In this document: positions 23,999-42,803 of the stretch, one piece after another
Layout: the number at the start of each line of letters is the position of its first letter
Numbering within the stretch: the stretch's first letter is position 1
Assembly: GCA_965242695.1 (NCBI GenBank)
Contig: CBDESU010000001.1
Location: 1,760,001 to 1,824,000 of the forward strand
DNA: 64,000 bases
From: Cenarchaeum sp.
GTDB lineage: Archaea; Thermoproteota; Nitrososphaeria; Nitrososphaerales; Nitrosopumilaceae
Direction of reading: 5' to 3'
Position numbers and translations under genes: made by a program
The notes under the pieces: model-generated
Database searches by the model: none
What the model was told of the DNA's origin: nothing
The model's input: the letters and a program-made list of their open reading frames with translations, nothing else

Positions 23999-24646
23999 TT
24001 GTTTTCAATATCCAGCCTGGCAGACGTGGTGAGGATCCCCCCCAAGATGTTCGGCACGACCCTCAGGAAGGCGGCCATCGACATACTCAAGGAAAAGTAC
24101 GAGAGCATGATCAACGCCGAGCTCGGCTACATCATCATGATCCTTGACGCGAGGGTCGAGGAGATGGGCAAGATGGTCGCCGGCGACGGCAGCACGTTCC
24201 ACAGGGTAGAGTTCGACGCGCTCACGTTCTACCCAAAGCTGCAAGAGATCGTCAACGGCGAGATCGTCGACATTACCGACTTTGGGGCGTTCGTCAGGAT
24301 AGGCCCCACCGACGCCCTGCTGCACCTCTCGCAGGTCATGGACGACTACCTCAAGAGCGACGTAAAGTCGGGCATCATAATCGCCAGCCAGAGCGGCCGC
24401 ACCCTAAAGGTCGGCTCTACGCTGCGCTCTAGGATCACGGCCGTCTCGCTCGGCAAGGGCGCCTCGATGGGCAAGATCGGCATCACCTGCCGGCAGCCGC
24501 ACCTGGGCACCGACGACTGGATCGCAGAGGGCCTCAAGGCCGCCGCCGGGGGCGGCAAGGGCGGCTCGGCGGACGGGGCCGACGCCGCAGGCGGAGGCAA
24601 GGGCAAGGCCAAGAAGCCCTCTGGCGGCAAGGGGAAGGAGGGGTAG
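23999..24646 (+). CDS. rpo7: DNA-directed RNA polymerase subunit Rpo7 (E')
   Basis: DVVRIPP, GDG, S1 domain FGAFVRIGPTDALLHLSQ, GITCRQP.LG. Confidence 0.95.
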   Translation: MFSISSLADVVRIPPKMFGTTLRKAAIDILKEKYESMINAELGYIIMILDARVEEMGKMVAGDGSTFHRVEFDALTFYPKLQEIVNGEIVDITDFGAFVRIGPTDALLHLSQVMDDYLKSDVKSGIIIASQSGRTLKVGSTLRSRITAVSLGKGASMGKIGITCRQPHLGTDDWIAEGLKAAAGGGKGGSADGADAAGGGKGKAKKPSGGKGKEG

Positions 24647-24652
24647 CGCAGC

Positions 24653-24841
24653 GTGGCCCGCGAGATGGCATGCCGCAAGTGCAAGTATGTGACGACCGGC
24701 AAGGTGTGCCCCGCGTGCAAGTCGTCCGACCTGACGCCGGACTGGACTGGAATAGTGCTGATCGTCGAGCCGAACGGCTCGCAGATCGCCTCGACCCTCG
24801 GCATTACATCCAAGGGCAAGTACGCCATCAAGGTGACGTGA
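24653..24841 (+). CDS. spt4: transcription elongation factor Spt4 (RpoE'')
   Basis: ACRKC...CPAC, W.G...I..P..SQIA..LGI...GKYAIKV; follows rpo7. Confidence 0.95.
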   Translation: MAREMACRKCKYVTTGKVCPACKSSDLTPDWTGIVLIVEPNGSQIASTLGITSKGKYAIKVT

Positions 24842-31145: not shown

Positions 31146-31525
31146 CCGCGGCTAGGCGAACCCTTCATTCCAGGGCCAGGCCCGGCCTGTGGCCGAGGGC
31201 TGAGGGTGGCCGCGGCCATAGCGACGGACTTTGCTGTGTTCAGGTTGCGGTTTCTCTGGGCATACGGGCGGCAGCGTTTGTGGAGTCGCCGAGGGCCGCG
31301 TGCGCCTCTTGACAATCAATGTCGACCAGAGCTTGTCCTGACCAACTGAAGCCGCCTAGAGCCGCCGCTATAGGCGAGCCCTTCATTCTAGGGCCAGGCC
31401 CGGCCTGTGGCCGAGGGCTGAGGGTGGCCGCGGCTAGGCGAACCCTTCGTTCCAAGGCCCTGCCCGGCGGCTGAGGGCGGGTTAAGGCCCCGCGGCTAGG
31501 CAAAGCTTTCGTCCCAGCGGCCCTC
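31146..31525. repeat. degenerate 62-64 bp tandem array containing copies of the rpl11 3' end
   Basis: TAGGCGAACCCTTCATTCCAGGGCC-like copies at 31153, 31371 and 31435 versus the rpl11 end TAGGCAAAGCTTTCGTCCCAGCGGCC at 31497. Confidence 0.8.
31219..31370. mobile_element. putative MITE-like insertion (about 152 bp)
   Basis: Interrupts the array exactly between two units; ends TAGCGACGG / CCGCCGCTA (imperfect inverted repeat), flanked by CA and TA; lower-GC interior. Confidence 0.4.
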
Positions 31526-31978
31526 GTTGATCTCGGCCGTGATCTCCTTTGGCGTCTTCCCCTCGATCTTCAGGCCTAGCGGCAGGCACGTGCCGACGAT
31601 CATCTTGGTGGCGGACTTTAGCGAGCTCGTGTACGAAGACTCCAGCTTTGCTCGTGCGACCCTCACGACCGCATCCATGCCGACCTCGCCGGCCCACACG
31701 GTCCCCGACGCGCCCGACCCCTTTTGGATGCCGGCCTCCTTGAGGAGCAGGGCCGCGACCGACGGGACGCCGATCGCCACCTCCCACTTTTTCGTGCCGG
31801 TGTCGACCGTGACCGTCACGGGCACCTTCATGCCCTCAAAGTCGGACGTCTTTTCGTTGATTGCGTTGATGACCTCCATGATGTTGACGCCAAGAGGCCC
31901 CATTGCGGGGCCGAGCGGAGGGCCCGCCGAGGCCTTGCCCCCCGTGACAAGGGCCGACACCGTCTGGACGTCTGCCAT
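31496..31978 (-). CDS. rpl11: 50S ribosomal protein L11
   Basis: GGKASAGPPLGP..GPLGVN, IN..T.DF.GMKVPV, GTC..LG..IEGK.P. Confidence 0.97.
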   Translation of the reverse strand: MADVQTVSALVTGGKASAGPPLGPAMGPLGVNIMEVINAINEKTSDFEGMKVPVTVTVDTGTKKWEVAIGVPSVAALLLKEAGIQKGSGASGTVWAGEVGMDAVVRVARAKLESSYTSSLKSATKMIVGTCLPLGLKIEGKTPKEITAEINEGRWDESFA

Positions 31979-32188: not shown

Positions 32189-32366
32189 GTGCGCGCATGC
32201 GATCGGGCGTAGGAGCGTGTGATCACGGCACGACAGGCGCATGGATGGCAGACGGCCCCGTGCGCGCATGCGATCGGGCGTAGGAGCGTGTGATCACGGC
32301 ACGACAGGCGCATGGATGGCAGACGGCCCCGTGCGCGCATGCGATCGGGCGTAGGAGCGTGTGATC
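32189..32366. repeat. 36-bp repeat x3 separated by two identical 35-nt spacers (71-bp period)
   Basis: GTGCGCGCATGCGATCGGGCGTAGGAGCGTGTGATC at 32189, 32260 and 32331. Confidence 0.92.
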
Positions 32367-33045
32367 CGCGGGCCGGCCCTGGCATGCACGGCAGGCGCCT
32401 GGTGCCAGGACGGCGCCGCGGGACGGAGCAGGTGCGGACAGTGTGGGGCGCCGAGGGCCGGCGCACCGAGAACGCCGGTCGAGGGCGCCGAGGGCCGGCG
32501 CGCCCGGGCCGGCTCGAGTCGATCTAGGCAGTAGGAGCAGGCCCAAGGCGACAGGAAGCGAGGATGTATAACCGCCCTAGCGGCAGGCCGGGCCGCGGCA
32601 AAACCCGGCGTTTGCAAAAGGCGAGAAATCCATTCCCCGTGCACGGTAGATCCCGCCGGCGGCGCCGTGGGCTGCTCGCTGGGAATCCAGCTCGAGTAGG
32701 CACTCCGGCGGTGCGGGGGCGGGCGCCGTGAAGCGCAGGGAATTGCGCGCCGGGAATCCATCCCACCGGCGCGCCGCGGATGCTGGCGGGGCGCGGGCGC
32801 GACGCCCTTCCCCTTGCAGGCCGCGCACCAGGCGGCAGACAGTAGAAGGAGTGCGGAATTGCGGGTCCGGCGGGGCGCGGGCGCGGGCATTACAGCACCT
32901 GCGACCGCTGGGCGCCCGGCGCGCCCCTAGGCGCCCATTCCGCGGAGGCCGGACCTGGCTGGGCGCGGCCGCAATGCGCCCCATCTCGCCACAGTGCGAG
33001 CATATCGGGCGCAGGCTGGGCGCGGCACGCGCCGCATCGCCGCTA

Positions 33046-33687
33046 CTACACGACAGGTGCTATCTTTAGGTAGTTTGCGTCGACCGTGACTGGCATCTGG
33101 TACGCCGCCTCGAGCAGGACAACGGTGGCCTCTTCCTTTTCGTGCTCGATGCGCGTAATGGTCGCCCGCATGCCCTTGAAGGGGCCTCCGGTGATCTCGA
33201 CGACCTGGTCCTTTGCAAGCGACGTGACGGTCGACTTTTTGATCAGGTACCCCTCTATGTCCTTGAACTCTAGCTCGCCGCGCAGCTGGCCGCGTATGTG
33301 GCGGACGCCGTCGACGGCCTGGAAGGCGGCGCTCGGGTCGCCCGCCTCGATGACGACGTACCCGCGCAGGTTGTCGACGAGCAGGATCGACTTTACGTTG
33401 AGCTGGCTCGCCTTGGCCTTGGCCTCTAGCGACTTCATGACGATCTTTTCCTGGCCGCCGGTGGTGCGGACCGCGAACAGGTGCGACTCTTCCGAGGGGG
33501 GCGCGGCGTCGGCGGGGCCGACCTTTAGCACCTCGAACGACTGGTTGCACGCGGGGCACTTGCCCTTCTCGCGGCCGACCCTGCCGGTGATGTACAGCCT
33601 GCCTATGGTCTTGCACAGGGGGCACTGCCCCTCGGTCGCGTTCCTAGGCGTGGTGCGGATGATCTTCTGCGTCTTGCGCCTGCCCAC
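33046..33687 (-). CDS. spt5: transcription elongation factor Spt5 with N-terminal Elf1-like zinc ribbon
   Basis: NGN (LFAVRTTGGQE, GYVVIEA) and KOW (VEITGGPFKG) domains, preceded in frame by MGRRK...CPLC-x18-CPAC; CTTATA 24-29 nt upstream of GTG 33687. Confidence 0.93.
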   Translation of the reverse strand: MGRRKTQKIIRTTPRNATEGQCPLCKTIGRLYITGRVGREKGKCPACNQSFEVLKVGPADAAPPSEESHLFAVRTTGGQEKIVMKSLEAKAKASQLNVKSILLVDNLRGYVVIEAGDPSAAFQAVDGVRHIRGQLRGELEFKDIEGYLIKKSTVTSLAKDQVVEITGGPFKGMRATITRIEHEKEEATVVLLEAAYQMPVTVDANYLKIAPVV

Positions 33688-34267
33688 GGGCAATCCAAAT
33701 ACGGGGCGCCTATAAGTCTAAGGGCGGCGCGGCGGGCCCTTACGGGGGCGCCCGTAGCCGCGCCCGGCCCGCCTCCCGCCCAGGCGCAGGGCGGCGGCGG
33801 CGGCTGGCTGGCGGGGAACAGGGCGCCCGTCCGGTGGCCGGCAGGTCACGGCCAGGCCCCATCCAGCCATCGCACAGAGGCGGCGCCCCCTCCACGGCCT
33901 CTGGCATGCCGAGGACGGCATCGATAGGGTCGCGCCAGCCATCGGAGGCGGCGCCCCTTACCTCCCGCCCCCCACGGCATGACGGCAACGGGCATCCTGA
34001 TCGTGCGATCGGGTGCAGTGCATCCTGGCACGGCGCGCGCGGGTGCGGGCATTCCCTCGGCAGGCGTGAGATGCCCGCCCCCGCTCCAGCCGGCCGTGCC
34101 TGCGGCAGATTTCACGCCAAGCCTCGAGTCCAAGGCACTTGCTGAAACGACATCAGCGAGGCAGCCAGCCCGCATGCCCCTCAAGCGCGCTTGCACTGCA
34201 AAAGCCCGGTATGCCACCCTGCTACAGTATCCGGCAACCCGGCATAGATTGATGTCGTCTTCTCGGC

Positions 34268-37200
34268 TCAAGCTACAGTCCGGCGCACTCGACGGCGCCT
34301 GCGGACGGCCCACGCGACGGCGACCGCGCCGGCAGCCGGAGCGCCGGCGTACACCACCGACACGAGCAGCATTGCGGCAATGCCGTACGCGAGCACAGAG
34401 TCCTCAGAGGCCGGATCGGCGTGCGTTGCGACCTGGAGCGTGTAGAGCATCGGCATCATCAGCGCTGCGACGGCCTGGCGGAACGCCGGATGCTCGCGCT
34501 CCAGGTCCGCCACCTGCGGCGAGAATGCATAGTAGGCCGACGAGAATGCAGACATGAAGGCCGAGCCCGATCCCGTCGCAAGGAGCGTCCCGTCCCTGTA
34601 CTCGCGCAGGGCCTGCACCTGCGGGGCAAGCTCGGTCCCGTACGCGGCCGTCGCGATCAGGCAACCCGAGTCGTCATCGTCCGGCGCGGCCGTGCCCGTG
34701 GTCGGCTCGCGGTCCGCATCCTGTGCATCACCCATGCCGTCCTTGGGCTCGGCAACCTTGCCGGCCAAGTGGGCCTCTACGCAGCCGGACGCGACTCCGA
34801 CGGCCTCGCAAATGTCGGCGTACTGGGGGTACGAAGAGTCGAACCACTCGCGATACGCCGGCTGCTCGGCATACCGCTTGACATAGTACGACGCATCGCG
34901 GCCCTCTTCAATCTCAAAGGCGGGGCGCACGAGCTCTGGCTCGGCATCCTCGCCGGCCATTTCGTCCGATGGCTGCGACACTGCGGGGGCATCTGGCTGG
35001 CGCGGCTGATCATCCGTCGGCTCCCTAGCCGGCGCGGGCTCACCGCCGGTTATGTCCTCGACCGACATGCCGGCCGGCTGAGCCGTGCCGTCGCCTGGCG
35101 CGTACTGCCTAAAGACCGTCTCGCCCGTGCAGGCGCCGCCCGTGCGTATTGACTCGGACACCGACGAGACCGCCCTGCCGTCGACCGCGGTTGCCCTGAT
35201 CGAGAATATGCCGTCCGTTGGCAGCGGCGCCTCGTAGATCGTCCGCCCCGACATGTCCTGCACGTCGGCCAGCGTCGCCGGCACCGTACCGGTCGACGAG
35301 ACGACCACGATGTCTGGCGAGCGCATGCCGTCATTTACCGCCATTCGGACGGTGCCGTCGTCGCAGTCCCAAGAGGCAGAGTATAGGACGGGGCCGCCCG
35401 ATCCAGTCGGTATGATCGAGCCGCCGCCGCCGCCTCCGCCGCCACCACGTCCGCCGCCGCTACCTCCGCCGAGGAACGCCGGGCCGGCCTGACCCGCGGG
35501 TCCTGTCGCATCCGGCGGCGGGACGACAACAACCGGCGGTTTCGTGCCGCCGTCACCACCGGTCTCCTTTGGCATGACGGTGACGACCATCGTGTGCATC
35601 TCCATGTCCACGAGCGTCACCGTGCCAAACCTCGTGAGGTGGTACGTGTGGATGACCTTGTCGTCGCCCGAGTCGAGCTGGCACTCGCCAGTCCCATTCA
35701 GCTGATCGTGCACCTCTGACGTGCTGTCGGCCCTGCACATGGTGTTGATCGGCATGACGGCATCGTCGCTGTTGTTCATGTAGAATGCCCTTCCGCCAGC
35801 CTGTCCCTCTAGGAGTATGCGGATGGGGATGGTGAACGTAATGTGTGTCTCGCTATCGCCGATCTCTACGATCTTCCCTATCCGCACGCTGTTATTGCCA
35901 AGGTCTAGCGCCGCGATCACGTCGTCCGCCTCGGGGCGCTCGTTGCCAGAGACGACGTACAGCTCCAGATTGCCGTCTGCCGGAACAGACATGGCCGTCG
36001 CGTTCGGCGGGATCACAACCTGGGCAAACGTGGTCGTCACGGTAATGTTCCTAGAGTCTGGGAACCTCACCGTGTTGTTGGCGGGGTCGGACACGAGAGG
36101 AGTGTCGCTCAGGCCCGTAATATCGATCCCTATGCGCGCAGTGTCGTTGCCGCGCGTAGTGACCTCGCTGACAATGCTGTCGCGTGCGATCTGCACGGTT
36201 CCGCTATCCTGCAGGGTTATTGTCCTGCTAAGAGCCCGTACAGGGATCGTGTCGTTGGTGAATGTGTATGTGATATTGCCTCTAATTCCTTCCAGGTCCT
36301 TGTTCAGCGCAATTTCTCCCGCCTGCATCTCGGCCACGCTACCGTTAAACGTGACCGTATGTGCTTCGGTCCCCAAGCCGGTTACATCTATCGTGGGCGC
36401 ATCCAAGCCCGCCTCGCTGGTTACACGGCCGTACGCATCGCGGGGCCCATCAAGCGGCCCTGTGTAGCTGATCACCGCCTTGTTGCTCGATATGAACTGC
36501 GCATCGGCCAATACTTCGACTTCGGTGCGGGTGGGCGGAGTGACCACCGTTGGCGGCGGTGCAATAGTGGCATTGATATCCACAGTGACAGGCTCGTTTA
36601 CAATGCCCTCGAACCACGCCCCTCCCGCTTCGGTGCTGTGTGCCCTGACAGACACCAGCATCTTCGTGCCGTTCGGCAACGGCGCATGGCCTATCACGTG
36701 CGTCGTGGCGGCATTCGCGCTGACACCGGCGATTGGTATTACCGTGCCGTTCTCATACGTGATGGCATAGTGGTATGCCGCAGGCGGGATCGTGCCGTTG
36801 ACCCCCTGCGAGGCATCGTGCGTGTCAATGGGGTGCGTGTAGTCCGCCTCCAACGCGATTCCGTTCGAGGTGATCCGGGTAAGGGTCGCGGGCGTTGTAC
36901 TCCGCCCGTCCGAGGTGGCAAGCACGGCCAAGGGCTGCGACGTTCCCTCGTACGTGTAGCCAGACCCCTCGTCGTCAAGCGCAGATATGGTCACCAGTAC
37001 CCACGTGCCGTTGCTTAGCACCTCGTGCTCAACCATGTGGGTTTTGCTACCGCTTCCGGTGATGTTTGTGATCGCGACCGTCTGGTCGTTTTCCTGTATG
37101 CGGATCGTGTAGTCGTCGATCGCCGCATCGACGGGGCTCGTGTACGTGGCCGTTAGCATGCCTTGGGCGGACTTGATCGATTCTAGGCCCGCCCTCATCG

Positions 37201-40200
37201 ATGTTTCTGCGATCGAGCCATCGCCGCCTATCTTCTGGTTGACGGCACCGGCAAACGCAACGTATCCATCGGGGTTGTCGAGCTGCCCAATGTCGATCGT
37301 GCCCGTCGCGCCGGCCGCAGCTGCAGTTCCATTGAATACTAGAACGTGCTCGGCAGTGCCGCTTCCGCTCACGCTCATGACTGCACGCGATCCGCCCGGC
37401 GCAAGATCTAGTCCCGTGTAGTCCGAGGTGTCGGCGTCGACGGCCCCCGTGTAGTTGATCGTGATGTTGTTGCCCGACGTGATAGAGGCGGACCGCAGAC
37501 GAACCATGTCGGGCGCAGGGAACGGATCCATCCCGACAGCTGCGGGATAGTTTCCAAAGCCGATCGTGTCGCCGTTTGCGTTTGCGGCAAATCCCTGCTG
37601 GATATTAACACGAAGACCCTGGTATCCCCCGCTCACAGTGTGGTTCAGCAATGCTTCGCGGAGCACTGTGGAATAATCGATTGTGGTGTTTGACGGGAGC
37701 ATTGTAATGATGTTCGCATTTTTGTTCCCATCTAGATCAATGTCCTCATTATAGCCCGTATAGTTGCCCCACTGTAGTGCAAGAACCGGCACTGGTATGT
37801 AAGACGTCATACCTGCGATCTTTATTCCAATGCGCTCGCTCCCGTTAATGGTAATCACTTCCGTGTTTTTATCAGGCCGATAGTCGTACGATGTACCATT
37901 CCATCTCATCGGTATGGACACCTTTGAGAGGTCGATGCTGGACACGTCGACTGCCTCGTTGAGGTAGAGCTGAAGCACCATGTGATCCGAGAGGATGTGT
38001 AGGTACGGATTGGTCGTCGGAGTGTAGGAACCCGCACTCAGGCTGGAGATGTCCACAAGCGCCGAGCCCGACAGAACCACGCTTGCGGTACTCGCATTGT
38101 TGATGTACTGCTGATCGTAGAGATACGCGTCTGCCCCCCTGTACGCAACGCCGATATTTGCTATCGGGTCGCCGTTTGTTCCCAATGTGCCGTCCGAGCC
38201 GGTCACGCTTGCGGTGATCACCAAGCTGGTGCGGGCGTCATCTGGAATGTCTTCGGCAAGCGTTATCATGTGATGCGTGCCCGGCATCTGCATCATGCGG
38301 CAAAGAGATTCAAAGTTTGAAGATGCGTTAGTGACCCCTCCCCTAGCTACGCGCCCTGTCTCCTCATCAAGCACAATTCCGAACGGCGTGGAATAGAACT
38401 CGCATTCCGTGGCCGTCTCGCCGGAATGGACATTCAGATGCTCGACGCCCACCAAGGTACTGACCTCGTCGGACATTACAAGCCACTGGTTCTTGTATAC
38501 GACTACATCGTGATCAGATGCTGAATTATTCCACCCGGCGGCATACCACTTGGCGCCGCCAGCCCATGCGCCCGTATAGTTTACGCCCGTGTAGTTTCCG
38601 ACCCAGTCCTCCAGTCCCCAACTGCTTTTCTCCAAGTCGACAACCTGCACGAATATCTCCGCGCCGTTCGAGAGGAGGAGCCGGCCGACATAACTTCCAT
38701 CTCCATCGCCCCTAACTTGACCAATATTATTAGGCGGCGTCACATCCGGGTTGCGCCAGTCGCCATGGAATCCCACAATGTCCGCCCTGTCCAGTACGAC
38801 GGGCTGGCTGAAACTACGACCGAGCGTCGACATGGTCCCTGTACGCACCATCGATACGTCCACTTCTGTCGGCTGCCCGTCGTTGTCGTACACTACTACT
38901 TTTTGGTACCCCGACAGCGGACCGACCGTGGGCTGGTCGTACTCTACAACGACGGTGCGATCCCCAGTGATCCTCGCAGACACTACTCTTGGCAGCTGCT
39001 CGTCGTAGACAAACTCGTTCGTATAGTCGCGGCCCACCGGCGTGTTGTCGAGCTGGGCAAGGCCCGTCACGTTGATCAGGCCATATGCAGACCTTCCGAC
39101 GCCGCTGCTGCCGTTTATCGTCAGCTTGTGCAGGGCGGTGCCGTTGCCCTCGACGCCCACAATGTCGAGACTTACGAACGTGCCGTTGTAGTTTGTGCTG
39201 TTGTATGTCCACGAGTAGTCGAATTTTTCAGAGGCGTTGGCATACGGCATGCTAGCCGCGCTTGCAAGCACGGAATATCCGCCATCCGGTACCCACGCGC
39301 TCGCGTTGTACGAGACCGTCACCTCGTTGTAGCCGGTAAACCTGGCCGCGATCATCCACGGCGCGCCGTCCATATTGCGCGCATCTGTGATTGGAATATC
39401 CTCGACGGCCAGCATAGTGTTGCCATTCAGGTCGGTCACGCCGACAATGCCGATGACACCCGCTGCTACAGAACCTCTTGCCACCAATGGAATTGGCCTA
39501 TCTGGCATGTCGAGCATGAGGGTGTGCATAGCGGTCCCGTTGCCAGCAACGACGGCGGTCACGGTGCGGTTTCTGGCATCGAATTGAAGATAGTCCGAGG
39601 CAATGGTGATAGCCTCGTAGTTGGCGGGCGACGAGTGGACGGGCTCGCTGAATGTGACGTTGATTGACAGGGGGCCCACGATCTCTGCGCGGATCGGCCT
39701 AGGCGCCATCCCGTCATCTACCACGACCGGGTTGTCCAAAAGGGCATTCCCTATTACATATGTTCCATTAACAAGGTACTGCGAGGCATCCTTGACGTTG
39801 CTTCCATTGATGTTCAACATGCTTATTTCGTCCAAGGACACAGACGATTCCAAGCCCAGCACATGCTGTACGGCAGTCTCCAGCGGGGCAATGGCAAGGC
39901 CGTCGCCATCGCCGCTCACAACAGATGTGACAGCTACAGTGCCGCCGCCAGCAAGTGTGATGGAATAGTCGGCATAGCTTGCGTATGAGACGGGCTCGTC
40001 GTAAGCGACAGCCAAGGTTCTGTCCGAGGTGAGCTTTGCAGAGACCACTGCTGGGCGCTGGGCGTCGTAAACTGGTTCGTAAACAAACGTCGTGGGATCA
40101 TCCCAATCGGAAGCCCAGCCAGACCACAGTACGTTGCTAGCGTTGGTTATCCTGCCGACATATATGCCCGCATCGGCGGCATTTTTTGCAACCGGCGGGC

Positions 40201-40702
40201 CGTCAAAGGTCAGCGTATGCACCGTTGTCCCGTCTCCGGTGATGCGTGTGACGTTACGCAGATCATAGTCGACAGAATCGTAATCTTCAGGATCCATGCC
40301 CACCACGTAACTCATCGAAAGATTGGCGTCTACAGTAGCACTTTTGGTGTACGTGATGGTAAGCTGGTTAGGAGAGACGAACACAGCGGCGTTGTCAATA
40401 TTGTCGATCGATAGATCAGAATCAGTCGCCTGCGCATACGCCTGGACGGCCAGCCACGCACCGCCAGCGCCCTGGCCGTGCAACCAAGAGGTATAGTCGA
40501 CCTCTCCGATGCTGCCATCGTGGTACGGCACGGCAAGCGCGGCCGGCAGTGCAAGAACGGCGCACAAGGCCAAGACTGCCAGTCGGCCAGCCTGTGCGCC
40601 AGAGCGTCTGGAAGCCGCTACAGGCGCCGCCCGATCGGGCGCGCGGCAAGGCGTACCCTCGGCCCTGCCGGCGCGGGCTGCAAGCCGCTGGCCAATGCCC
40701 AT
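34268..40702 (-). CDS. giant cell-surface protein (about 2144 aa) with Ig-like repeats and CFI-box-CTERM
   Basis: ATG 40702 with TTATATA upstream; hydrophobic signal, beta-rich D.Q.P...SA...Y..P repeats, many NxS/T sequons, C-terminal GCLIATAAYGTELAPQVQALRE plus TM and Arg tail. Confidence 0.88.
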   Translation of the reverse strand: MGIGQRLAARAGRAEGTPCRAPDRAAPVAASRRSGAQAGRLAVLALCAVLALPAALAVPYHDGSIGEVDYTSWLHGQGAGGAWLAVQAYAQATDSDLSIDNIDNAAVFVSPNQLTITYTKSATVDANLSMSYVVGMDPEDYDSVDYDLRNVTRITGDGTTVHTLTFDGPPVAKNAADAGIYVGRITNASNVLWSGWASDWDDPTTFVYEPVYDAQRPAVVSAKLTSDRTLAVAYDEPVSYASYADYSITLAGGGTVAVTSVVSGDGDGLAIAPLETAVQHVLGLESSVSLDEISMLNINGSNVKDASQYLVNGTYVIGNALLDNPVVVDDGMAPRPIRAEIVGPLSINVTFSEPVHSSPANYEAITIASDYLQFDARNRTVTAVVAGNGTAMHTLMLDMPDRPIPLVARGSVAAGVIGIVGVTDLNGNTMLAVEDIPITDARNMDGAPWMIAARFTGYNEVTVSYNASAWVPDGGYSVLASAASMPYANASEKFDYSWTYNSTNYNGTFVSLDIVGVEGNGTALHKLTINGSSGVGRSAYGLINVTGLAQLDNTPVGRDYTNEFVYDEQLPRVVSARITGDRTVVVEYDQPTVGPLSGYQKVVVYDNDGQPTEVDVSMVRTGTMSTLGRSFSQPVVLDRADIVGFHGDWRNPDVTPPNNIGQVRGDGDGSYVGRLLLSNGAEIFVQVVDLEKSSWGLEDWVGNYTGVNYTGAWAGGAKWYAAGWNNSASDHDVVVYKNQWLVMSDEVSTLVGVEHLNVHSGETATECEFYSTPFGIVLDEETGRVARGGVTNASSNFESLCRMMQMPGTHHMITLAEDIPDDARTSLVITASVTGSDGTLGTNGDPIANIGVAYRGADAYLYDQQYINNASTASVVLSGSALVDISSLSAGSYTPTTNPYLHILSDHMVLQLYLNEAVDVSSIDLSKVSIPMRWNGTSYDYRPDKNTEVITINGSERIGIKIAGMTSYIPVPVLALQWGNYTGYNEDIDLDGNKNANIITMLPSNTTIDYSTVLREALLNHTVSGGYQGLRVNIQQGFAANANGDTIGFGNYPAAVGMDPFPAPDMVRLRSASITSGNNITINYTGAVDADTSDYTGLDLAPGGSRAVMSVSGSGTAEHVLVFNGTAAAAGATGTIDIGQLDNPDGYVAFAGAVNQKIGGDGSIAETSMRAGLESIKSAQGMLTATYTSPVDAAIDDYTIRIQENDQTVAITNITGSGSKTHMVEHEVLSNGTWVLVTISALDDEGSGYTYEGTSQPLAVLATSDGRSTTPATLTRITSNGIALEADYTHPIDTHDASQGVNGTIPPAAYHYAITYENGTVIPIAGVSANAATTHVIGHAPLPNGTKMLVSVRAHSTEAGGAWFEGIVNEPVTVDINATIAPPPTVVTPPTRTEVEVLADAQFISSNKAVISYTGPLDGPRDAYGRVTSEAGLDAPTIDVTGLGTEAHTVTFNGSVAEMQAGEIALNKDLEGIRGNITYTFTNDTIPVRALSRTITLQDSGTVQIARDSIVSEVTTRGNDTARIGIDITGLSDTPLVSDPANNTVRFPDSRNITVTTTFAQVVIPPNATAMSVPADGNLELYVVSGNERPEADDVIAALDLGNNSVRIGKIVEIGDSETHITFTIPIRILLEGQAGGRAFYMNNSDDAVMPINTMCRADSTSEVHDQLNGTGECQLDSGDDKVIHTYHLTRFGTVTLVDMEMHTMVVTVMPKETGGDGGTKPPVVVVPPPDATGPAGQAGPAFLGGGSGGGRGGGGGGGGGSIIPTGSGGPVLYSASWDCDDGTVRMAVNDGMRSPDIVVVSSTGTVPATLADVQDMSGRTIYEAPLPTDGIFSIRATAVDGRAVSSVSESIRTGGACTGETVFRQYAPGDGTAQPAGMSVEDITGGEPAPAREPTDDQPRQPDAPAVSQPSDEMAGEDAEPELVRPAFEIEEGRDASYYVKRYAEQPAYREWFDSSYPQYADICEAVGVASGCVEAHLAGKVAEPKDGMGDAQDADREPTTGTAAPDDDDSGCLIATAAYGTELAPQVQALREYRDGTLLATGSGSAFMSAFSSAYYAFSPQVADLEREHPAFRQAVAALMMPMLYTLQVATHADPASEDSVLAYGIAAMLLVSVVYAGAPAAGAVAVAWAVRRRRRVRRTVA

Positions 40703-41169
40703 GTCCGGCGGCGCCCAAAGAGGGCTATATAACAATTCTGTAGGGGGGTGGGGGCACGATCCCCACTCCACGCGCCAAATTTCCGGCCAAAAAGCCGCCA
40801 TTGTGTGCAATTCCAGACGTCCCTGGGCGCCAGAACCGCAAGGCCTTGCAGGGCGGCGCGCGGGGACTCCAAAGGCGTCGCACGCAGGCCTAGGCGCAGG
40901 GGCAGGGCAGGTGCGGCAGACAGGATGCGCAGAGGCGCGAATAGCCGATCGGGGCGGCGGGGGCAGGAATGCCGCCAAGCCGTACAGCAGCAGGCGCGGC
41001 GCGCGACGGGAGAACTGGGGCCGTGTGGTCGGCGGCCCCTCGACATGGCGCCACGGCGCGGCCGCGGCCGATCGGGGCAGTCGGCGCCGTGGCGCGGCAG
41101 GGCCGGCACGGCTGCGGCGGGCGGGCAGAACAGGACAGTGATGGCGAGGGCCAAGGCGTCCAGGCATGG

Positions 41170-41275
41170 GAGGCAGGTCCGCGCAGGGCCGCGCCCCGCA
41201 TCGGCCGCAGAGTCTGCGGCTGTCGGCAGGGGGGATGTCAAGAGGCAGGTCCGCGCAGGGCCGCGCCCCGCATCG
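41170..41275. repeat. repeat-spacer-repeat unit: 34-bp perfect repeat, 38-nt insert
   Basis: GAGGCAGGTCCGCGCAGGGCCGCGCCCCGCATCG at 41170 and 41242. Confidence 0.9.
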
Positions 41276-41361
41276 CTGCCGGCTGCGGACCGCCGCCAGC
41301 CCCACGTCGCGCCCGCGCCGGATGCGCTGCAGTGGATTGGAGGATGCGCCCGATCTCCGAG

Positions 41362-41461
41362 GGCGGATGCATGCCTCGCGGCCCTCGCGCCGAGCCGCCT
41401 GGCCCGCCAGGGATCGGCCGCCGCGGCGGATGCATGCCTCGCGGCCCTCGCGCCGAGCCGC
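41362..41461. repeat. repeat-spacer-repeat unit: 37-bp perfect repeat, 26-nt insert
   Basis: GGCGGATGCATGCCTCGCGGCCCTCGCGCCGAGCCGC at 41362 and 41425. Confidence 0.9.
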
Positions 41462-41636
41462 AGGACAGAGGCGCGCGCGAGCCGCCATGTCGGCGGGCAG
41501 GGCGGCATTCCTCCCCCCGACGGCCCGCGCAGCCCGCAAGTCGGTCCGTGCGCCTGCCGCCCGAATGCGAGATGCGGCCGCAACAGCGGCGGCACAATAT
41601 ACAACGGCATAAATACGGCAGACGCATCCCGCAACC

Positions 41637-42803
41637 ATGGCGGGGCAGGCGGCAAAACTCGTGGCCAAGCAGATGGGGCGGCGCGGAGCGGCGTACTGGC
41701 TGTACGAGCACGAGTACGAAGGTGGGATCGCGGAGCTCTTGGAGAAGCTCGACGCGATGCTGCGCGAGGACCGGCGGCTGCAGGTCACTGCGATGATCCT
41801 CGTCTGCAAGGAGGACATGCTCGGCAGCCTAGACGGGGGGCGGTCCAGGCCCCCGTTCGCCGCAGAGGTGGTGCGGCTGGACAGGGAGACTGGCATGGCA
41901 AGCATCTCGGTCGGCGGAGAGGGCTCCGGCGGGCCTGGGATGGTGCGGATTGCAAAGATGCAGGATCCGTTCGTATACCTTGCCATCACCGGCGGGAGCG
42001 CCGCGTTCGTGGACCGCGCGCTCGTGCCGTTCGTCCAGTCGCTCTATCCCGGCGTGTCCGAGGCGGCCCTGAGCTCGGCCGAGATGCGCGGGGCGCTCGA
42101 CATCCTCGAGCGCAGGTCGGGCGGGGAGGTCAGGATCGCCGGCGTGGAGGCATGCCCCAAGGAGGACGGGGCGGGCGGCAGGCGCGGCGGGCCCGATGTG
42201 GGGGAGAGATGGGACGGGGTGCATGGATCGTTCGCGGCAGGCGCGGATGCCCCGTACCGCGACGCCCTTGACGAGGCCGCCGAGGGTGGCCGGCGGATAG
42301 GCAGGGTGCAGATGCGTCTGGTCCGGGACGGCACCCCCTCGATGGAGTGCCAGATCTCGAGGCGCTGCCTGCTCCGGTTCCGGCTGTCGATGCGGCCGTT
42401 CTGCACGAGCGCGCTGCCCTACATGGCGGGCCTGGCAAGCGGCAAGACCAGGCTCTACTCGGGGCGCTCCAAGATGGAGAACGGCGGCCGCATCAGGGCT
42501 CTCGATATCGTGCTGGACGACGATGTGTTCAGCAATGTCCACGAAAACGAAAGGCTTGTGCGCATCATCCGCGCCATGCCGCACAGTGCTGGAAGCGCGT
42601 ACAGCATCTTCCCGTACGTGCACAGGTCACTGGTCGACTACATGGACGGCTCGTCGTTCGACATACTGGTGACCACCGCAGACAGGATAACCATCGTGCT
42701 GCAGCCAAGTGCCACGCATGCATCCATTGCGCGCCTGGTAAACCACATATTCGAGCGGTTCGCCGAGGGGCGCGTAGAGGAGCATCATGAAGCGCGGCAG
42801 TGA
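41637..42803 (+). CDS. uncharacterised protein, copy 1 (partner of downstream nuclease)
   Basis: 388-aa ORF with CATAAATA upstream; C-terminal DY.DGSSFD...I.IV.Q...A..ARL.NHIF..F.EG; paralog at 44501. Confidence 0.8.
   Translation: MAGQAAKLVAKQMGRRGAAYWLYEHEYEGGIAELLEKLDAMLREDRRLQVTAMILVCKEDMLGSLDGGRSRPPFAAEVVRLDRETGMASISVGGEGSGGPGMVRIAKMQDPFVYLAITGGSAAFVDRALVPFVQSLYPGVSEAALSSAEMRGALDILERRSGGEVRIAGVEACPKEDGAGGRRGGPDVGERWDGVHGSFAAGADAPYRDALDEAAEGGRRIGRVQMRLVRDGTPSMECQISRRCLLRFRLSMRPFCTSALPYMAGLASGKTRLYSGRSKMENGGRIRALDIVLDDDVFSNVHENERLVRIIRAMPHSAGSAYSIFPYVHRSLVDYMDGSSFDILVTTADRITIVLQPSATHASIARLVNHIFERFAEGRVEEHHEARQ

Follow-up and report, generated by a model that had tools for sequence, protein, structure and literature searches.

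An in-frame fusion of a small zinc ribbon, possibly a diverged Elf1 relative, to Spt5 in Cenarchaeum sp.

In the archaeon Cenarchaeum sp. (family Nitrosopumilaceae, assembly GCA_965242695.1), the transcription elongation factor Spt5 is encoded in one reading frame with an N-terminal zinc-ribbon module, here called ZR1. The gene lies in the window analysed in this study, a stretch of 64,000 nucleotides (contig CBDESU010000001.1, positions 1,760,001 to 1,824,000 of the forward strand), and coordinates given below refer to this window unless another contig or locus is named. Elf1 and Spt4/5 are elongation factors common to archaea and eukaryotes, and an original prediction, made by a model from the letters of the window, had read the gene as a natural fusion of Elf1 with Spt5. 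Our findings establish that the fusion is real at the DNA level, and of this there can be very little doubt. As to the nature of the ribbon, the best explanation, to which we assign a probability of about 0.5, is that ZR1 would be a diverged, C-terminally truncated relative of Elf1 that is held on Spt5.

Results

A single reading frame joins the ribbon to Spt5

Translation of the frame gives, in protein order, MGRRKTQKIIRTTPRNATEGQ-CPLC-x18-CPAC-NQSFEV, then LKVGPADAAPPSEES, then HLFAVRTT...; after NQSFEV comes the linker LKVGPADAAPPSEE, followed by SHLFAVRTTGGQEK. The ribbon cysteines are arranged as C22-P-L-C25, x18, C44-P-A-C47. The original prediction had claimed one frame at 33046..33687 with no stop ahead of Spt5, no ATG at the usual Spt5 start, and a TATA-like box in front of the extension. 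The listing of open reading frames (ORFs) and the translation bear out the first of these claims, a stop codon being absent between ribbon and Spt5. The second holds as well: the fused protein reads PPSEESHLF where stand-alone relatives read MSEE(V/I)KSHLF, so the usual Spt5 ATG is gone. The box is also present (TTAGACTTATAG, 22 nt before the GTG start codon). The frame in the ORF listing begins at a TTG (33046..33693, 215 aa), and all 20 homologues that were examined start with MGRR or VGRR, two codons after this TTG. Since the homologues begin M/V-G-R-R, and a conserved box stands at a fixed distance, we place the start at the GTG at 33687, which gives a protein of 213 aa.

The C-terminal part of the protein, residues 70-209, makes up a complete Spt5. 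The NCBIfam model TIGR00405 matches it with 123.7 bits, against a cut-off of 69.95, and spans NGN through KOW. The two domains follow each other over their curated Pfam cut-offs, PF03439 with 67.9 bits (cut-off 22.4) and PF00467 with 27.3 bits (cut-off 22.3), and the fused gene is the sole TIGR00405 match in the 3.89-Mb genome. The full-length AlphaFold2 model contains three folded modules joined by low-confidence linkers, with a predicted template modelling score of 0.32 and a predicted local distance difference test (pLDDT) value below 50 at residues 55-65 and 140-152. When residues 1-64 were modelled alone the pLDDT was 67.4, and the ribbon strands (17-52) reached about 70-80. A complex prediction with ZR1 (1-56) and Spt5 (66-213) supplied in trans gave a score of 0.00 (mark 0.32), which counts neither for nor against a contact between them.

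The fusion recurs in independent contigs and in a sister species

Contigs from four public runs, belonging to four studies, were compared with the genome over 32900-33900, and they cover the coding sequence. Two of them (X1, X4) show no difference across the junction and the start. The other two, labelled as sponge metagenome (X5, X7), differ by 19 and 28 letters over 1 kb; all listed indels lie outside 33046-33687, and 12 of the 12 substitutions within the coding sequence are synonymous. The fused form was found in eight protein clusters at 87-98% identity (P0002-P0007, P0009, P0010), and among the genomes searched it is carried by one sister species from the same genus (genome G004). An alignment of nine distinct fused sequences has ribbon and Spt5 conserved and a linker of 13-16 residues that differs in sequence and length yet is always in frame. 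Thus neither the contigs of the four studies nor the nine variants contain a stop or frameshift between the domains, and the search for the same fusion in relatives, proposed with the original prediction, succeeded in G004 and in the metagenome clusters. In a comparison of this genome with G004, the ratio of nonsynonymous to synonymous substitution rates (dN/dS) comes to 0.29 in the ribbon, 0.05 in Spt5 and 1.09 in the linker between them, indicating that ZR1 is under purifying selection. Fusions of ZR1 to other partners were also sought: ten longer proteins came up, eight of them the Spt5 fusion. The remaining two, P0139 and P0140, were not accepted as further ZR1 fusions; their contigs are shorter than 1 kb, and the calls look chimeric or like read-through.

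Could the gene nevertheless be something other than one fused protein? The DNA is very GC-rich and long spurious frames are common in such DNA, which would suit an artefact of assembly or gene calling that joined two neighbouring genes. This is extremely improbable, for the same frame is found in independent contigs from four studies, the sister-species genome and seven further metagenome protein clusters share the fusion, and the pattern of purifying selection speaks otherwise. It is also improbable, though less so, that one transcript yields two proteins, with most Spt5 initiated inside the frame, for instance at the GTG of ...FEVLK..., and the fusion as a minor or incidental product. There is indeed an in-frame GTG between ribbon and NGN, and the linker evolves neutrally, as its dN/dS indicates. 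But with no stop after ZR1 in any of the nine variants, every ribosome that starts at ZR1 must make the fusion; the candidate start codon is read as V in seven variants, M in one and L in one; the coding sequence ahead of NGN has no AT-rich, promoter-like box; and the ancestral Met of Spt5 is gone.

Resemblance of ZR1 to Elf1

If the fusion is real, what is the ribbon? The original prediction called the extension Elf1-like. Its MGRR start and cysteine spacing agree with this description, while the C-terminal helix and the family cut-offs do not; searches by fold and against the PDB, and the reverse HMM search, do not point to Elf1 in particular. For comparison we used 37 archaeal Elf1 proteins over the Pfam cut-off, 12 of them from the same order. 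ZR1 and the order-level archaeal Elf1 have M1-G2-R3-R4, C22-P-x-C25, x18 and C44-x2-C47 at identical positions. The basic tail MG(K/R)(K/R) that characterises Elf1 is present in ZR1 (MGRRKTQKIIR), and an MG(R/K)R start is found in 12 of 12 order-level and in most of the 37 phylum-level proteins. So is the C4 ribbon, CPxC-x17-18-CxxC at a fixed distance from the N-terminus, which in ZR1 occupies the same positions as in the Elf1 of loci L058 and L059. Further along, order-level Elf1 proteins read like ...x16-VCGNCG..., then PIDIYNEFVD.

Hidden Markov models (HMMs) of ZR1 were run against a database of the 59,312 stop-to-stop ORFs of the genome, the 37 archaeal Elf1 and 14 members of a second ribbon family, ZR2, described below. 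With a widened model (32 sequences including more distant members, all filters off), the six best non-self matches were all Elf1 (E 0.0013, 0.0083, 0.028, 0.031, 0.1 and 0.12), aligned end to end over HMM positions 1-48, and Elf1 accounted for 10 of the 12 top non-self matches. With a narrow model an Elf1 again came first after self (E 1.6e-4), and Elf1 made up 11 of the 14 non-self matches. The ZR1 profiles thus rank archaeal Elf1 before almost every other ORF of the genome, the exception being a ZR1 paralogue.

The distribution of the two families points in the same direction. In the phylum sample, 126 of 151 genomes have a canonical Elf1 over the Pfam cut-off, against 0 of 21 genomes of the window's own family. 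A stand-alone elf1, for which a search was also proposed at the outset, exists in one sense, ZR1 itself being a separate gene in relatives. In the order sample, Elf1 over the cut-off was found in 0 of 9 genomes of family f1 and 0 of 8 of family f15, while the ZR1 profile was significant in 9 of 9 and 8 of 8, respectively. In one source, a cluster of ZR1 proteins is annotated as 'transcription elongation factor Elf1'. Finally, a 53-aa gene from family f4 (L101:288-449, genome G039), which reads MARRRR...TTGKCPKC-x18-CSNCGHNW, is built exactly like ZR1; in its second knuckle it looks closer to canonical Elf1 (CxxCG), and it may be an intermediate form.

Evidence that weighs against an Elf1 identity

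A considerable body of evidence weighs against an Elf1 identity of ZR1. The acidic C-terminal helix of Elf1 (DxYxxFxD) is missing, since the stand-alone ZR1 stops six residues after the last Cys and in the fusion the linker follows at this point; in the structural account of PMC6150629 it is this helix that binds the polymerase lobe. A search of 1.84 billion representatives with the ZR1 profile yielded 39 proteins at E<=0.001, and in the 20 of these sequences that were inspected no Elf1 C-terminal helix was seen. Family models fare no better. The Pfam Elf1 family PF05129 is not among the 14 families that match the fused protein at E<=10; it matches 6 of 14 ZR1 members, with a best E of 0.018, below several unrelated ribbon families, and the weak matches of relatives' stand-alone ZR1 reach at most 17.5 bits against a cut-off of 29.8. 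The NCBIfam model NF011482 gives no match to ZR1 at E<=1, and ZR1 stays below the curated Elf1 cut-offs. In the reverse direction, HMMs built from 37 or 12 archaeal Elf1 missed the fused ORF when run over the 59,312 ORFs at E<=10, their best genome matches being other ribbons. The joint rise of Elf1 in the ZR1 searches counts as one event because the 37 Elf1 are kin. None of the 32 canonical Elf1 loci of the order sample is among the ZR1 profile matches listed; they may have been missed there, relative to the exhaustive HMM search, because only loose first-look candidates were scored.

Comparisons of profiles and of structures likewise lack specificity. The hhalign alignments of ZR1 with Elf1 have probabilities of 92.8% and 95.1%, and we rejected these figures as support because of a control with 489 CxxC-x10-30-CxxC segments of the genome, in which the fused N-terminus ranks third. 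Above it stand ZR2 and a ribbon resembling LysW, a carrier protein. In PDB searches with the ZR1 profiles, neither an Elf1 nor an ELOF1 chain came up at E<=10; C2H2 finger arrays or eS27 head the lists for ZR1 and ZR2, and with a profile of this type an unrelated C2H2 finger array scores E 2.9e-6. A Foldseek comparison of the model of residues 1-64, a check suggested with the original prediction, gave no Elf1 in the top 50 PDB matches and nothing at E<=0.001; the matches are generic ribbons (eL43, Rpb9/TFS, NrdR) at E>0.3. VIA-align places the Elf1 chain 6ir9_M at rank 17 (Z 2.6, root-mean-square deviation 2.9 over 45 residues; top Z 3.5), and the ESM Atlas returns generic zinc-ribbon clusters at 0.89-0.91 and no Elf1. 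The fold evidence is neutral with regard to Elf1.

Two further leads to Elf1 in these genomes were discarded. The Pfam Elf1 match in the window's own genome (E 0.013) falls on the ribbon at the C-terminus of an ORF of 206 aa, presumably the translation factor aIF2-beta, and the long frames with weak Pfam Elf1 matches in two other genomes proved to hold unrelated ribbons. Spt4, another small ribbon that acts with Spt5, was ruled out as the identity of ZR1, the genome having a separate and normal Spt4.

A second ribbon family, ZR2, as a competing candidate

The strongest competing claim comes from ZR2, a family of 69-75 aa with the consensus MKIKCPKCK..AEL..DFS.VKC..C.LDMSYGEYV.YVAH.D.TYSDILGDY.GSTEG..GTLDEWD. 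All 36 of the 36 same-family genomes have it, and in the order sample it occurs in f1 (9/9), f4 (7/7), f9 (9/9), f15 (8/8), f18 (1/1) and f11 (1/1, a partial match); it was not found there in f2, f5, f6, f7, f8, f10, f12, f13, f14 and f19. ZR2 occurs in every sampled ammonia-oxidiser family without canonical Elf1 and, apart from the partial match in f11, was not found in families with canonical Elf1. ZR2 is an equally good Elf1 candidate, which again weighs against the identification of ZR1. The two families resemble different flanks of Elf1, and sequence alone does not choose between them.

It is accordingly conceivable, if somewhat unlikely, that ZR1 is a lineage-specific ribbon unrelated to Elf1, with its MGRR tail and Cys spacing convergent, and that the true Elf1 counterpart is ZR2. 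The fusion would then still be one protein, in which ZR1 gives Spt5 another contact, for example with RNA or the ribosome, and spt5 does lie in a ribosomal-protein neighbourhood, with L11 at 31496-31978. In keeping with this possibility, ZR1 misses all curated Elf1 thresholds, and the ZR2 ribbon is followed by a helix-like segment, YSDILGDY, and an acidic tail. ZR2 is also the best genome-wide match of the NCBIfam Elf1 model (E 0.0078), aligns to the 37 Elf1 in hhalign with 95.0% over ribbon and helix region, reaches an Elf1 at E 0.0016 with its own HMM, and has a spread that is a near mirror image of that of canonical Elf1. Yet ZR2 also falls below the cut-offs (17.9 bits for that best match, 17.9-19 bits overall, versus 109), and its best PDB match is the ribosomal protein eS27 (E 0.047), not Elf1. 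It has no basic N-terminal tail, and its spacer has 14 residues, not 17-18. The ZR1 HMMs, for their part, reach Elf1 before all other ORFs save the ZR1 paralogue, with ZR2 rows at E>30, and the ZR1-type 53-aa gene in f4 means that distribution separates the families uncleanly. It is tempting to reconcile both candidates by supposing that ammonia oxidisers carry two diverged Elf1 derivatives, ZR1 with the basic tail and the ribbon and ZR2 with the ribbon and the acidic helix, the former riding on Spt5; we consider this doubtful.

Origin of the fusion

ZR1 is a gene of its own in the relatives of this species. A small ZR1 open frame was found in 34 of 36 same-family genomes (E 1e-13 to 1e-26), the two genomes without a match being 72% and 73% complete. 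The stand-alone protein has 53 aa and reads MGRRKTQKIIKTGPKNVTTGMCPLCKTIGRIFITGQVGKERGKCPACNQxFDL, then stop. The fused ribbon belongs to the same family, being 60-75% identical to 13 stand-alone ZR1 and matching their profile at E 3.1e-31; for the first 66 residues, the next match in the own genome has only E 0.083. A diverged ZR1 paralogue, ZR1b, which begins VGRRG... and has CLHC-x18-CPKC, was also noted; counterparts with 55-69% identity are conserved in three of the genus's four remaining genomes, and no TATA-like box was seen upstream of it.

In eight of nine loci scanned, ZR1 lies directly 3' of tRNA-Ser(GCT), the ninth (L005) being the fused gene of G004. The own genome has no ZR1 behind its tRNA-Ser(GCT). 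Within 20 ZR1 loci, spt5 is found at <=1.5 kb from ZR1 in two, both of them fused. In the genus's three remaining genomes ZR1 stands alone, and Spt5 has a start of its own, its open frames measuring 157-164 aa. Of the 20 ZR1 loci, 16 have a box of the form TTAGACTTA(A)TAG whose end lies 21-23 nt ahead of the start codon; these include both fused genes, in which the distance is 22 nt. In the window, TTAGACTTATAG is the sole AT-rich element within 33690-33800, a GC-rich stretch, and no AT-rich element was found inside the part that codes for ribbon or linker. The box probably acts as the promoter of the fused gene.

The simplest history, as we read these loci, would be one fusion event in the common ancestor of this species and G004, in which the ZR1 gene with its own promoter would have been placed before spt5, with loss of the ZR1 stop and of the spt5 start codon. 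Among the genomes and clusters searched, the fusion appears only in this species and the one sister species. A source of the linker was sought in the 3' flank of ZR1 and the 5' flank of spt5 of relatives, and nothing recognisable was found beyond the coding ends.

Coordinates and neighbourhood

The features are collected in Table 1. The fused gene keeps the usual position of spt5 upstream of the gene for L11, a name that we assume from its translation. The spacer between spt5 and L11 is unusually long (about 1.07 kb) and very GC-rich, and contains a perfect tandem repeat; in the sister genome G002 it is likewise long and filled with repeats. Directly upstream of the fused gene is a giant open frame, repeat-rich and with a hydrophobic C-terminal end, which reads like a surface protein and which replaces the upstream spt5 neighbours seen in the smaller genomes of the genus. 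Elsewhere in the window, at a distance of 8 kb from the fusion, an ordinary and unfused Spt4 is encoded directly behind an Rpo7 of 215 aa whose tail is rich in Gly and Lys. The RNA polymerase subunit P ribbon has two identical weak matches, one near an end of each of the two contigs, which points to an overlap or duplication of the contig ends.

Table 1. Coordinates of the fused gene, its parts and the other features mentioned
Feature	Coordinates	Strand	Remarks
ZR1-Spt5 fusion, coding sequence	33046..33687	-	213 codons, GTG 33687, stop at 33046-33048
ZR1 domain, residues 1-53	33529..33687	-	basic tail MGRRKTQKIIR and C4 zinc ribbon
Linker, residues 54-67 (LKVGPADAAPPSEE)	33487..33528	-	variable, in-frame length changes (alignment)
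Spt5 NGN, residues ~70-148	33244..33480	-	Pfam PF03439, E 7.4e-19
Spt5 KOW, residues ~159-189	33121..33213	-	Pfam PF00467, E 2.9e-6
TATA-like box TTAGACTTATAG	33710..33721	-	ends 22 nt upstream of GTG
Giant open frame	34268-41989	-	2573 aa
Tandem repeat in spt5-L11 spacer	32189-32366		perfect, 71 nt, 2.5 copies
Ribosomal protein L11 (presumed)	31496-31978		downstream of the fused gene
Spt4	24653-24841	+	62 aa, 47.2 bits (cut-off 25)
Rpo7 and Spt4 together	23999-24841	+	
ZR1b	contig 1, 564835-564993; L076:1501-1665	+	
ZR2	contig 2, 1461781-1462005; L075:1519-1746	+	
tRNA-Ser(GCT)	contig 2, 1328429-1328515		no ZR1 behind it
Subunit P ribbon, weak match	contig 1, 3031-3132		16.6 bits
Subunit P ribbon, weak match	contig 2, 1649458-1649559		16.6 bits

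Discussion

Our findings indicate that a zinc ribbon which is a separate gene in relatives has become the N-terminal module of Spt5 in this species and one sister species. In Spt5 proteins, NGN docks on the clamp of RNA polymerase. If ZR1 is a diverged Elf1, it would have kept the basic tail and the ribbon and lost the acidic helix that binds the polymerase. With NGN on the clamp, the flexible linker of 14 residues would hold ZR1 adjacent to it and above the cleft for the DNA, and the basic tail of ZR1 would contact DNA there, as has been proposed for Elf1. Covalent fusion would fix the stoichiometry at 1:1 and abolish a separate recruitment step, and the tether might stand in for the missing helix and could supply the affinity. 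In one structural model, Elf1, NGN and Spt4 lie side by side and seal the cleft of the archaeal polymerase (PMC6150629). By analogy with it, an Elf1-like geometry for the tethered ZR1 seems plausible.

The distribution of Elf1 in archaea gives these candidates some relevance. Daniels et al. (2009; PMC2732611) did not find Elf1 in Cenarchaeum symbiosum or Nitrosopumilus maritimus, and allowed for very divergent homologues. The passage of a 2018 review that lists Elf1 in Cren-, Kor-, Aig- and Bathyarchaeota and in Asgard leaves Thaumarchaeota unlisted, and the review calls the role of archaeal Elf1 enigmatic (PMC7289017). ZR1 and ZR2 are two concrete candidates for the missing Elf1. In the full-text literature that we searched, mostly without subscription journals, neither a zinc ribbon on Spt5 nor an Elf1-like gene of ammonia oxidisers is described. 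Both the Spt5 architecture and the divergent Elf1-like family would thus appear to be new. The fusion can be read as a 'Rosetta stone', linking an unannotated 53-aa protein, conserved among abundant nitrifiers, to Spt5 and through Spt5 to the polymerase during transcription, and it is a ready-made tethered construct with which to ask how Elf1-like ribbons and NGN close the DNA cleft. If ZR1 and ZR2 are indeed both Elf1 derivatives, the elongation complex would be a rewired version of the Spt4/5-Elf1 complex that is shared with eukaryotes. The biological reach of the fusion itself is modest, since it is confined to a narrow clade.

How does this protein compare with the known systems? Elf1/ELOF1 (PF05129) has in common with ZR1 the MG(R/K)R basic tail, the first Cys at position 22, the CPxC-x18-CxxC ribbon and the small size; it differs in its acidic C-terminal helix or tail for polymerase binding, whereas ZR1 ends right after the ribbon. 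Elf1 works beside Spt4/5 on the elongating polymerase, according to several accounts (PMC6150629, PMC8448881, PMC7289017). In Saccharolobus (Sulfolobus), in the experiments described in PMC8448881, it is a separate protein that joins the complex after Spt4/5, in contrast to ZR1, which is covalently joined to Spt5. The listed Elf1 over the cut-off are not fused to Spt5 either, because their open frames measure <=182 aa in the phylum sample and <=131 aa in the order sample. Spt4 (PF06093) resembles ZR1 in being a small C4 ribbon that acts with Spt5. As for archaeal Spt5 (TIGR00405), all of it is contained in residues 68-213, which share 70-77% identity with the stand-alone proteins of 151-156 aa in relatives and about 75-81% with named Nitrosopumilaceae and Nitrosopumilus proteins of 152 aa; by these relatives, the organism is presumably an ammonia oxidiser of that family. 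Unlike these, the fusion carries a zinc-ribbon module of 67 residues at its N-terminus and has lost the Spt5 start and promoter. Extensions of a different kind are found on many Spt5 of Nitrosopumilales (P0033, P0037, P0047, P0084 and others), namely 30-70 residues of acidic, Pro/Glu-rich repeats (PVEEPPAEE), annotated as 'modular protein' in one source; these are of low complexity and without cysteines, unlike ZR1, which brings to Spt5 a C4 ribbon found as a separate gene in its relatives.

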